DNA of 50,311 nucleotides from Deltaproteobacteria bacterium. GTDB taxonomy: Bacteria > Myxococcota_A > UBA9042 > DTJE01. The notes beneath the pieces were generated by a model. That model made no database searches, was not told the DNA's origin, and was given only the letters and a program-made list of their open reading frames with translations. Of this stretch, positions 24,235 to 50,311 are shown one piece after another (position 1 is the stretch's first letter; every line of letters begins with the position of its first letter). The stretch is taken from positions 1 to 50,311 of the forward strand of contig JBBIPO010000006.1 in NCBI GenBank assembly GCA_037442805.1, read 5' to 3'. The translations under genes were made by a program, and so were the position numbers.

Positions 24235-24330
24235 GGTGGGGATCCGGGGTCGGGGTTCCAGGGTCCGGGGTCCGGCACGGCGCCTGGGCGGACCTGGACC
24301 TGCTCGCGGAACCCGGTCACGGACACCGCC
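24235..24330 (+). repeat. Copy A of a bipartite intergenic repeat: a G-rich heptamer array (GGGGATCC/GGGGTCC-like) followed by a GGTCAC/GGACAC hexamer motif
   Basis: The sequence ggtGGGGatccGGGGtcGGGGttccaGGGtccGGGGtccggca ... ggtcacggacac shares CCGGGGTCCGGCA and GGTCACGGACAC with the elements at 48885-48990 and 50216-50311. Confidence 0.7.
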
Positions 24331-48043: not shown

Positions 48044-48844
48044 ATGCTATATCTGGGACTGGACCTCGGCAGCCTGACCTGCGACGCGGTGCTACTCGAC
48101 GACGAGGGTCGCCTGGTGTCGTGGGCCGTGGTCCCAACCGGGGCCCGTCACGCGGAGGCCATGGCCCGAGCGCGCGCGGAAGCCGTGTCCAGGGCGGGAT
48201 GCCGCGACGAGGACCTCGCGGCTGTGGTCTCGACCGGATACGGCCGGGAGCGGGTCGAGGGCCGGCTCGCAGCGGTCACGGAGATCACCTGTCACGCGCG
48301 CGGCATCACGCATCTGATCCCGGGCACGGAGGTCCTGCTCGACATCGGGGGCCAGGACAGCAAGGCGATCCGCATCGCCGCGGACGGGAAGGTCGTGGAC
48401 TTCGCCATGAACGACCGCTGCGCGGCGGGCACCGGGCGGTTCCTGGAGGTCATGGCCCGTGCGCTCGAGGTCGAGGTCGCGGACCTCGGGGAACTCGATT
48501 CGCGGGCCGAGGGCCGCCTTGCGTTGACGAGCCTCTGCACCGTCTTCGCCGAGAGCGAGGTCGTGGGCCTCGTGGCCGCCGGGACCGAGGTCCCCGAGAT
48601 CGTGCGCGGCCTGCACCGGGCCATCGCGTCGCGGGTCCAGGCCCTGGTCCGGCGCGTGGCTCGGGACCTGCGGTCCCCCCGCATGGCGATGTCCGGCGGG
48701 GTGGCCCGCAACCGCGGCGTGGTGCGTGCGCTGTCAGAGGCCCTGGGGTGGGACATTGCGGTCCCGCCGGAACCGGACATCGTCGGGGCCCTGGGTGCGG
48801 CCCTCATCGCGAGGGAGCGCGCCGGGGACACGAAGAGCGCGTGA
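48044..48844 (+). CDS. BadF/BadG/BcrA/BcrD-family ATPase (2-hydroxyacyl-CoA dehydratase / benzoyl-CoA reductase-type activase, HgdC-like)
   Basis: MLYLGLDLGS..TGYGR..E..CHARG..DIGGQDSKAI......DF.MNDRCAAGTGRFLE..A......L......CTVFAESEV......G......G.H.A......GGVA.N.. is the canonical activase pattern, including the cluster-bridging Cys residues. Confidence 0.88.
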   Translation: MLYLGLDLGSLTCDAVLLDDEGRLVSWAVVPTGARHAEAMARARAEAVSRAGCRDEDLAAVVSTGYGRERVEGRLAAVTEITCHARGITHLIPGTEVLLDIGGQDSKAIRIAADGKVVDFAMNDRCAAGTGRFLEVMARALEVEVADLGELDSRAEGRLALTSLCTVFAESEVVGLVAAGTEVPEIVRGLHRAIASRVQALVRRVARDLRSPRMAMSGGVARNRGVVRALSEALGWDIAVPPEPDIVGALGAALIARERAGDTKSA

Positions 48845-48884
48845 ACGGCTGACGCGCGGAGGGAACCAGAGGGGACGGAGGGCA

Positions 48885-48990
48885 GGGATACGGGATCGGG
48901 GATCCGGCATCCGGGGTCCGGCAGGGACTCCGTGGCGGTCACGGACACGGTCACGGATCCCGACACGGTCACGGCCGACGGTCACGGTCC
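48885..48990 (+). repeat. Copy B of the bipartite intergenic repeat: about 6 heptamers (GGGATAC GGGATCG GGGATCC GGCATCC GGGGTCC GGCAGGG), a spacer, and about 9 hexamers (GGTCAC/GGACAC-type)
   Basis: Read directly from the sequence between the activase stop and the mnmA stop. It shares a 24/25-nt core CCGGGGTCCGGCAGRGACTCCGTG plus GGACACGGTCACGG with the inverted copy at 50216-50272. Confidence 0.8.
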
Positions 48991-49034
48991 TGCGCGCGAG
49001 CGGCGCCCGCGCCCCCACGCCTGGGCGTGAGGAT

Positions 49035-50129
49035 TCAGTCGTCTCGCTCGATGAATCCACCTCCGAGGACCTGGGGACCATCGTAGAAGACCGCGGCCTG
49101 CCCAGGCGCCACGGCGCTCTGAGGCTCCTCGAACATCACGACGACCCGTCCCGGCGACACGAGCGCGATCCGGGCGGGCGCGGCGCGGTGGCGGGAGCGG
49201 ATCTGCACCTGGACGGGGCGGCTGTGCCCCGCGTCGAACTCCCGCGCCAGGGCGATGTCCAGGAAATGCAAGTTCGAGACGTGACAGGTCGCGCGCCGGA
49301 GGTCCGCCGCGCAGCCGAGAACAACCTCGTTGCGTTCCGGGACGATGCGGACCACGTGGCGTCGCGGCCCCCCCCCGAGCCCGAGCCCCTTCCGCTGGCC
49401 CACGGTGAAGGCATGAAACCCCGAATGCGAGCCCAGGTTTCGGCCATCCAGGTCCACGAACTTCCCGCGGCCCGGGAGGCGTTCCGCGGCATGGGATTCG
49501 ATGAAGGATACGTATCCCTCCGGCGGGACGAAACAGACCTCCTGACTCTCGGGCTTGTCGCTGACCGGGAGGCCGTGCTCCCGGGCGATCCGGCGGACCT
49601 CGGGCTTCCGCAAGCCCCCGACGGGAAGGAGCAGTCGGTCGAGGACGTCGCGACCGATCGAGAACAGGAAATAGGACTGGTCCTTGGCCGCGTCCGCGGC
49701 CCGTAGGAGGCGCGCACGCCCATCTGGACCCCGTTCGACTCGGGCGTAGTGCCCGGTCGCGATCCACCTTGCGCCGAGCTCGGCGGCCTGTTGCAACAGC
49801 CAGGGGAACTTGACGCGCTGATTGCAGGCGATGCACGGGGAGGGGGTGCGGCCGGACAGATATTCGGAAATGAAGGGAGCCACCACGTCCTCGTGAAATG
49901 CCTTGGTCGCATCCAAAGTATGATGGGGAATCCCGAGGCGTTCGCACACGGCCTGGGCATCCCGGCGGTCCGCGGTGGTACAGCAGCCATGCGCCCCTTC
50001 CGAGGGACAGCGGTACAGGCGCAGCGACAGGCCGACGACTCGAAATCCGGCCTCGACGAGGAGCACGGCCGCGACCGAGGAATCCACGCCCCCGGACATG
50101 GCGACCACGACCTTGGCCCCACGATCCAT
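49035..50129 (-). CDS. mnmA: tRNA 2-thiouridine(34) synthase
   Basis: A start at ATG 50129 (MDRGAKVVVAMSGGVDSSVAA..) gives a 364-aa protein with the PP-loop SGGVDSS near the N-terminus, as in characterised MnmA. Other blocks: ..C....D..DA..V...LGIP.., ..GRTP.PC..CN..IKF.., ..ATGHYAR.., ..KDQSYFL... The longer track ORF extends into the repeat element. Confidence 0.92.
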   Translation of the reverse strand: MDRGAKVVVAMSGGVDSSVAAVLLVEAGFRVVGLSLRLYRCPSEGAHGCCTTADRRDAQAVCERLGIPHHTLDATKAFHEDVVAPFISEYLSGRTPSPCIACNQRVKFPWLLQQAAELGARWIATGHYARVERGPDGRARLLRAADAAKDQSYFLFSIGRDVLDRLLLPVGGLRKPEVRRIAREHGLPVSDKPESQEVCFVPPEGYVSFIESHAAERLPGRGKFVDLDGRNLGSHSGFHAFTVGQRKGLGLGGGPRRHVVRIVPERNEVVLGCAADLRRATCHVSNLHFLDIALAREFDAGHSRPVQVQIRSRHRAAPARIALVSPGRVVVMFEEPQSAVAPGQAAVFYDGPQVLGGGFIERDD

Positions 50130-50215
50130 GGCCACAACGGTACCTGGCGAAAACGCTGGAGGCAAGGTCGCTGGCTCGGAATGTCGGGCGGACGCCTCGC
50201 GGTCCATGCCGGAAG

Positions 50216-50311
50216 CCGTGACCGTGTCCGTATCGGTGATGGTCACGGAGTCTCTGCCGGACCCCGGACCCCGGATGCCCGACCCCGGACTCCATGACCG
50301 TGACCGTGGCC
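50216..50311 (-). repeat. Copy C of the bipartite intergenic repeat, inverted relative to copy B and truncated by the window end
   Basis: The plus strand reads CCGTGACCGTGTCCGTATCGGTGATGGTCACGGAGTCTCTGCCGGACCCCGGACCCCGGATGCCCGACCCCGGACTCCATGACCGTGACCGTGGCC. Its reverse complement aligns with copy B. A further GTGACC hexamer run starts at the window edge. Confidence 0.8.

Follow-up and report, generated by a model that had tools for sequence, protein, structure and literature searches.

The locus studied here raises the question of why mnmA, the gene of a tRNA 2-thiouridylase, lies between two inverted copies of a bipartite repeat, each made of a G-rich heptamer array joined to a hexamer array. 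It is found near the right end of a 50,311-nt stretch of DNA (the window), which is the entire contig C6 (JBBIPO010000006.1) of the assembly GCA_037442805.1 of an uncultured Deltaproteobacteria bacterium, referred to below as G000, the genome under study (3.6 Mb, 315 contigs, 69.5% GC, 94% complete); G001 is its sister species and the other G numbers are relatives. The original prediction, made from the window itself, had considered a dispersed element, a substrate for inversion and a structured regulatory element or insulator. Our analysis indicates that the two copies, B and C, and a third one, A, are probably members of a species-specific, high-copy, noncoding and modular dispersed repeat that acts as non-autonomous selfish DNA. 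mnmA is a bystander, the inverted pair having arisen incidentally from two independent insertions beside convergent genes, and not a switch, an insulator or a regulator of mnmA.

The repeat family and its copies around mnmA

A genome-wide search with the 24-nt core common to copies B and C returned 12 exact matches in G000, rising to 47, 104, 152 and 178 when up to one, two, three and four mismatches were allowed, against none at up to four mismatches in the reversed genome used as a control. The dispersed family that had been proposed thus exists, in about 180 copies, and all family counts given below rest on this core at up to four mismatches (n = 178); a 13-mer of the core at two mismatches gave 588 matches, many of them within genes, and was too permissive to be kept in the statistics. 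The unit reads (GGGGTCC)n, GGCAGGGACTCCGYGGCG and (CACGGN)n, usually followed by GC-rich hairpin modules, and the column-wise consensus, (GGGGTCC)n, GGCAGGGACTCCGYGGCG, (GTCACG/GACACG)n, carries its highest information in the core, of which 18-19 nt are unique. Elements have a median length of 87 nt, and their arms, suspected from the window to vary, range from 1 to 9 heptamers and from 0 to 17 hexamers across copies. Heptamer arrays are almost never free-standing: 59 of the 82 present in G000 directly precede the core and most of the others precede a degenerate one, which argues for copying of the entire unit rather than for its emergence in situ. Position 23 of the core varies together with the first base of the hexamers (p = 1e-5), pointing to subfamilies, and adjacent copies are arranged head-to-tail in 26/26 cases.

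The element usually travels in company. The hairpin modules that follow it are A (GCGCGGGCAGCGCCCGCGC), B, C (CGCGAGCAGGCGCTCGCGTCCCCACGGGAACC) or D, with C or E sometimes preceding it, so that the usual order is HEP-CORE-HEX-A-B-C and the spacers that hold elements are mosaics of modules. Module A has 142 matches genome-wide (being palindromic, it is counted on both strands) and module C about 95. Downstream of modules A, B and C there is often a T-run and GGAGGA, and it is possible that these modules are terminators travelling with the element.

Within the window, the repeat search recovered copies B and C as an inverted pair (48891-48956 and 50222-50287) of 66 nt, 83% complementary and 1265 nt apart, a pairing that chance does not explain given the 178 core matches against none in the reversed genome. 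The core that the original prediction had them share, CCGGGGTCCGGCAGGGACTCCGTG, matches copy B exactly and copy C with one mismatch. The junction of two array types was also confirmed by Tandem Repeats Finder (TRF), which placed arrays of period 7 at 48885-48921, 50257-50290 and 24239-24275 and one of period 6 at 48936-48989 (8.8 copies). The third, more diverged copy announced at 24235-24330 (plus strand) is a decayed copy A by TRF and the repeat search, in which the heptamer arm is intact, the core degenerate and the hexamers reduced to two; its segment 24243-24277 pairs with 50255-50289 over 35 nt at 91% complementarity. Copy A begins 39 nt past the stop of its co-oriented upstream gene and is followed by the gene of a sigma-54 activator.

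Copy B lies on the plus strand in the 3' flank of its left neighbor, a gene of the same direction for a BadF/BadG/BcrA/BcrD-type ATPase (48044-48844, plus strand; PF01869, 208 bits). Its 5' arm of GGGRTCC-type heptamers, degenerate on the 5' side, spans 48866-48919 according to TRF and the family consensus and begins some 20-40 nt past the stop codon of that gene; the unique core GGCAGGGACTCCGTGGCGG (48920-48938), at the peak of information content, matches the consensus exactly; the (CACGGN)n hexamer array forms the 3' arm (48939-48989; TRF period 6, 8.8 copies, and family consensus); and hairpin module A (CTGCGCGCGAGCGGCGCCCGCGCCCCCACG..., 48990-49034), recognized by its matches genome-wide, extends the copy to 49034, up to the stop codon of mnmA (49035-50129, minus strand; PF03054 at 240 bits, PF20259 and PF20258). 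The hits of mnmA lie in Myxococcota and Acidobacteriota at about 50% identity, and the taxonomic placement of the organism drawn from them is tentative. Copy C lies upstream of mnmA on the minus strand, in the direction of that gene. Its hexamer arm, which is the 3' arm on that strand (50203-50243; sequence and repeat search), stops some 75-85 nt short of the mnmA start, and is preceded by the core (GGCAGAGACTCCGTG, 50244-50262; core search), where the one mismatch within the 24 nt is found, and by the heptamer arm (50257-50292; TRF period 7 at 50257-50290), which contains the G4-type motif. The copy is truncated by the end of the contig, where hexamer units ending in GGAGTCC (50290-50311, minus strand) are the apparent tail of a further head-to-tail copy. 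Each of the two copies is therefore co-oriented with one flanking gene of a convergent pair, which explains the inverted layout at mnmA.

Placement in the genome and comparison with relatives

Distances to genes are approximate, since they rest on a home-made caller with a codon-usage model trained on G000 (2741 genes, 88.6% coding). By these calls, 166/178 cores are intergenic and 12 lie wholly or partly within genes. When the upstream gene is co-oriented, the element begins a median of 41 nt past its stop codon, and the median distance that separates the 3' arm from the start codon of a co-oriented downstream gene is 173 nt. Where the spacer separates tandem genes, copies run with the genes in 43 cases and against them in 17 (p = 0.001; 35 versus 16 when counted by region, p = 0.011), so the orientation with respect to the flanking genes is biased but not exclusive. 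No fewer than 69 of the 178 copies, copy C among them, are found 300 nt or less from a contig end, where 5% would be expected, which indicates that the repeat breaks the assembly. That inverted copies enclose exactly one gene holds at mnmA and fails as a family property: two copies bracket a single gene in seven cases, five of them direct and two inverted, mnmA being one of the latter.

The family is confined to G000. The core pattern has 103 matches in this genome and 0-2 in 40 relatives, those few being chance matches in coding genes, and the exact core 20-mer found only three chance coding matches in JGI metagenome contigs; three metagenome runs from the subsurface contain the organism itself, at about 2-3x depth and solely in short contigs. 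With the whole element as query, BLAST matched nothing but the heptamer arm in G001 (at least 59 matches) and nothing but the hexamer arm in G008, which belongs to another genus of the family and has plain (CACGGR)n arrays in its spacers (C177:2315-2359 and C343:107-158; contig and positions), free of heptamers and core. The 20 loci sampled in G001 carry an analogous composite, of which that genome has at least 59 copies, arranged head-to-tail, with the same heptamers, another core of about 55 nt (TCGCGGTGSACGTGGC...GCGTCCAACGTGG) and (CACTGN)n hexamers. Two motifs diagnostic of it, GCGTCCAACGTGG and a run of the CACTGN hexamer, are absent from G000, and none of the 20 G001 loci has the core or the hexamer motif of G000.

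Comparison of sites between the two species, which involves this single sister genome, itself fragmented, points to insertion. At orthologous sites of G001 the blocks at C31:16495-16725 and C34 (efp-epmA) are missing and the one at C150 is partly so; the G001 spacers there are of 6-7 nt, and at the C31 site 7 nt correspond to 230 nt in G000. These copies are best explained as post-speciation insertions. The flank-to-flank distance between efp and epmA is 281 nt in G000 and 96-174 nt in the 13 genomes of the family in which the genes are adjacent (two others have about 2.3-3 kb), and the shorter spacing of the relatives indicates that the G000 insertion is the derived state. The inserted blocks carry hairpin modules and end in AGGAG or GGAGGA, resembling a Shine-Dalgarno (SD) sequence, as seen in two insertions. 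The reverse situation was also met, with about 10 G001 copies that have no counterpart in G000, such as a tandem pair of the G001-type element (C409:2300-3000), placed antisense between genes that overlap by ATGA in G000 (C17:8419-8423). Only upstream of mnmA do both species have an element in the spacer, each with its own type; the G001 copy has the same orientation and likewise lies at a contig end. Gene order also differs. The BadF/BadG-type gene of G001 (C167) adjoins gmk and not mnmA, and in G000 the two genes are apart, each abutting an element (copy B, and C118:5641-5713 in the region C118:5614-5831), suggesting that rearrangement breakpoints coincide with the repeats.

On this evidence, a unit of heptamer arm, 18-19-nt core and hexamer arm, usually accompanied by hairpin modules and an SD-like tail, has entered intergenic spacers as whole blocks after the split from the sister species, preferentially just past stop codons and along the direction of transcription; local multiplication yields head-to-tail duplicates, and arm lengths vary widely among copies. 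Copies would move by a trans-acting function rather than spread by recombination alone, their arms would drift in length through replication slippage, and the orientation bias may reflect either selection against a C-rich antisense transcript or an orientation-specific insertion step. Several points weigh against regarding the family as selfish DNA. Neither a transposase nor terminal inverted repeats nor a target-site duplication came to light, and mobility is deduced solely from presence and absence between species; the copies are fairly diverged (mean pairwise identity of 74% over 60 nt), so there has been no very recent burst; the biases in orientation and position, measured on approximate gene calls, could also be compatible with a selected function in the 3' untranslated region (3'-UTR); and the own-type element upstream of mnmA in both species could represent positional persistence with turnover of the sequence, that is, concerted evolution.

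A link to PF05635 genes and the competing explanations

Unexpectedly, protein clustering in G000 returned one three-member paralogous family, every member of which flanks an element, and these paralogues belong to PF05635, the Avd-like 23S rRNA intervening-sequence protein (45.5 bits for C18:8950-9312, cut-off 33.8). An element lies within 30 nt of the stop codon in C18:8950-9312, C143:3-281 and C112:11821-12051, that is, in three of the four PF05635 genes of G000 as compared with 36 of its 2741 genes (P = 9e-6, or 5e-4 if the close paralogues on C18 and C143 are counted as one event). The C18 gene sits between two direct copies, after a palindromic leader of 214 nt, and the fourth gene, on C305, between inverted (CGTGGG)n and (CCCACG)n arrays. 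Arrays of (CGTGGG)n with at least two exact units number 118 in G000 (for example C305:800-830 and 1210-1245), and the commonest 14-mer of the genome (139 occurrences) falls within them; runs of at least 14 G (or C), counted as 14-mers, number 66 and are possibly an artefact of sequencing or assembly.

The association extends beyond this genome. PF05635 genes of G001 have G001-type arms downstream; the PF05635 cassettes of G019 (four loci) and G012 (one) have hexamer or heptamer arrays on their flanks, and G019 has a leader piece in common with the C18 cassette. Throughout the class, PF05635 genes occur in 40 of 107 genomes, often in many copies and at contig ends; G020, G037, G072 and G054 each have 10-15 copies, many at contig ends, as is typical of repeated or mobile cassettes. 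Among 30 loci taken from 30 genomes, an array of period 6-7 with at least five copies was found within 350 nt of 22 PF05635 genes, as opposed to 16 of 400 random 1-kb windows drawn from seven of those 30 genomes (odds ratio 66, p = 2e-20), and with a looser definition (any 5-9-nt array within 350 nt) the figures were 25/30 and 96/400; random windows replaced a control made of spacers, which was underpowered with two control spacers. Several of the array pairs that flank PF05635 genes are inverted (G012, G057, G086 and others), and the sequence of the unit is specific to each genome.

One possible reading, which we put forward tentatively, is that the elements derive from a small cassette, with a PF05635 gene set between short-period arrays, of which they would be gene-less solo or miniature ends, the cassette or its protein acting as source or mobilizing partner of the family. 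The location of the PF05635 genes and the class-wide enrichment in arrays favor it, as does the view that intervening sequences (IVSs) with an S23p open reading frame (ORF) and terminal inverted repeats are selfish, the ORF having been proposed to act in mobility (PMC4990558); PF05635 is also related to the Avd protein of diversity-generating retroelements (DGRs) (PMC10053308). On the other hand, this is an association only, the mechanism of PF05635 is known for DGRs alone, and 178 elements stand against three or four genes. The copies at mnmA and most others are without any gene and hence without a PF05635 ORF, the leader was not found in solo copies, and the copies that flank the C18 gene are direct where those of other genomes are inverted. 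PF05635 genes may, moreover, merely occupy repeat-prone spacers, and the random windows came from 7 of the 30 genomes. We know of no mobility function of the PF05635 protein. Put in full, it is conceivable, with less than even confidence, that a mobile cassette exists that lacks a transposase, has as its only gene one for a PF05635 four-helix-bundle protein and ends in short-period tandem arrays, and that the heptamer-core-hexamer elements are its abundant form without the gene. Were this true, array sequences proper to each lineage would account for sister species having entirely different element types, and the heptamer and hexamer "microsatellite" families and the 23S rRNA intervening sequences would be two faces of one widespread and undescribed class of elements. 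A reverse transcriptase was also considered as mobilizer and dropped: the sole one in G000 sits in an ordinary DGR on C235, and its only link with the family is four copies downstream. This DGR (C235:1-3128) is complete, with a bAvd gene (PF22296), an A-rich template repeat, a reverse transcriptase fused to a MutS_I domain and, before the four element copies, two Lcl_C-domain target genes with C-terminal variable regions.

It is rather unlikely that the copies are selected cis-acting 3'-UTR or intercistronic elements (a G-quadruplex (G4), stabilizer, terminator or attenuator, or protein-binding array) that tune the flanking genes, mnmA included. Such a role would be consistent with the position of copies close behind stop codons, with their co-orientation with transcription at 2.5:1, with the SD-like tail (GGAGGA or AGGAG) that insertions bring between tightly packed genes, and with the resemblance of hairpin modules followed by T-runs to terminators. 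Similarly placed G-rich heptamers of Xanthomonas and Nostoc form G4 in vitro (PMC4692102), the trait of dispersed, intergenic and tandem G-rich heptamers that marks those simple sequence repeats is present here, and the canonical G4 motif proposed for copy C does exist (GGGG-TC-GGG-CATCC-GGGG-TCC-GGGG, minus strand 50262-50286, about 133 nt upstream of the mnmA start). It is not a conserved one, though: four or more G3 tracts with loops of up to 7 nt occur in 23% of copies only, the distribution of run lengths declines steadily from two upward, and no peak or preference at four tracts or units was observed across the family, for which reason G4 formation was dropped as a family property. Nor did the suggestion of a structured regulatory element find support, given that the folding of copy B, taken with its flanks, does not surpass that of shuffled sequence (z = +0.10), that the lower value of copy C (z = -2.3) arises because GGAGTCC of the neighboring partial copy pairs with GGACTCC of the core, that an Rfam search at a permissive E-value gave no match and that the orthologous sites of G001 are empty. 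The core is absent from the 40 relatives, 17 copies are antisense in tandem spacers and 12 cores fall at least partly within called genes. The lack of conservation, together with the negative G4 and structure tests, makes a selected role less likely than selfish spread.

Still less credible is an origin as a repetitive extragenic palindromic (REP) sequence, a REPIN or a miniature inverted-repeat transposable element (MITE), moved by a REP-associated tyrosine transposase (RAYT) or a classical transposase, or as a plain pair of microsatellites arisen in situ. The family is small in size, intergenic, high in copy number and assembly-breaking, as such elements are, and relatives such as G008 do have plain hexamer arrays. 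The REP- or MITE-like anatomy that had been suggested was nevertheless not found. PF01797, the Y1 transposase family that includes RAYTs, had no match in the fragmented, 94%-complete G000 assembly (controls were positive), an absence that is not absolute; REP units are imperfect palindromes of 20-40 nt, often with a 5' GTAG, and the core has no palindrome, only a 5-6-bp CCGTG/CACGG stem; and none of the 26 adjacent pairs is the inverted doublet of a REPIN. There are no terminal inverted repeats either, because the two ends are different arrays (heptamers versus hexamers, or hairpin modules) that are not complementary to each other. At C31, C34 and C150, the three sites where filled and empty states could be compared, the insert replaces a 6-7-nt spacer with no target-site duplication seen, although a comparison between species may obscure short duplications. 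As for an origin in situ, the 18-nt unique core in 178 copies and its linked variants rule out independent slippage. G000 does hold a family of GTAG-bearing palindromes with a REP-like look (GCAATCCGCGCTGTAGGCGCGGATTGC, for example C305:2240-2308; about 130 matches with up to four mismatches, both strands), which has been counted in favor of a REP-type element.

It is highly improbable that the inverted copies serve to invert or recombine the segment with mnmA, or make up an invertible cassette with a special relation to that gene, for despite the 66 nt of complementarity and a gene order that departs from G001 exactly at element-bearing spacers (BadF/BadG-gmk), the homology is short and imperfect, inverted brackets are the minority (2/7, with all 26 adjacent pairs direct as well), and the rearrangement is a single anecdote.

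Significance and comparison with known repeats

In practical terms, the family breaks up the assembly (copies stand at 62 of 630 contig ends), marks points of rearrangement and can be mistaken for regulatory or G4 elements. Taken alone, it adds one to the known lineage-specific families of intergenic repeats; of broader interest is the statistical tie, throughout the class, of PF05635 genes to arrays of 6-7 nt. Should this link be causal, a large family of "hypothetical proteins" would acquire a function and a life-style, and the puzzling heptamer and hexamer repeats of many bacteria an origin.

The nearest likeness in sequence and placement is with the GGGAATC repeats of Xanthomonas and the GGGGA(C/T)T repeats of Nostoc, which are also dispersed, mainly intergenic tandem arrays of G-rich heptamers with a variable number of units, often about 50 nt or less from a stop codon and occasionally in inverted pairs, and for which no link to mobile elements was seen (Rehm et al. 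2015; PMC4692102). In G000, however, the heptamers are one arm of a composite that is copied with a unique core and a hexamer arm, and four units are not preferred. Sites are also less stable: 83% of the Xanthomonas repeats are common to two species of that genus (PMC4692102), while orthologous sites here are not kept in the sister species.

REP sequences, bacterial interspersed mosaic elements (BIMEs) and REPINs are likewise high-copy, lineage-specific intergenic repeats that form mosaics of modules at the 3' ends of genes, but the present family has no palindromic unit, inverted doublets or RAYT (PF01797). Short tandemly repeated repetitive (STRR) heptamer arrays of cyanobacteria reportedly contain embedded small dispersed repeats (SDRs), as described by Elhai et al. 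in 2008 (Genome Res). The two systems are alike in having a unique unit of about 20 nt in or beside heptamer arrays, many copies and no recognizable transposase; they differ in phylum and sequence, and G000 combines 7-nt and 6-nt arrays in a fixed order with hairpin modules.

Modular or operon-compatible small repeats also include pneumococcal BOX (A-Bn-C), the mycobacterial interspersed repetitive units (MIRUs) and the Geobacter MITE "Chunjie". They resemble the family in their modularity, variable number of internal units, harmless insertion between the genes of operons and orientation along genes. They are unrelated to it in sequence and lack its heptamer and hexamer arms; the ends of BOX and Chunjie are inverted, and MIRUs, at 40-100 bp per unit, are translationally coupled, with small ORFs that overlap the stop and start codons of their neighbors.

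The IVSs of 23S rRNA and the cassettes of PF05635 (S23p, Avd-like) are, as the family would be, small selfish units bounded by repeats (PMC4990558, PMC10053308). Classic IVSs lie in 23S rRNA genes, whereas the PF05635 cassettes described here lie in spacers between protein-coding genes; the repeats that flank the C18 cassette are direct and not inverted, and the copies at mnmA are gene-less. Seen among these systems, the element is a further lineage-specific family of dispersed intergenic repeats, of a known kind and with a composition of its own.

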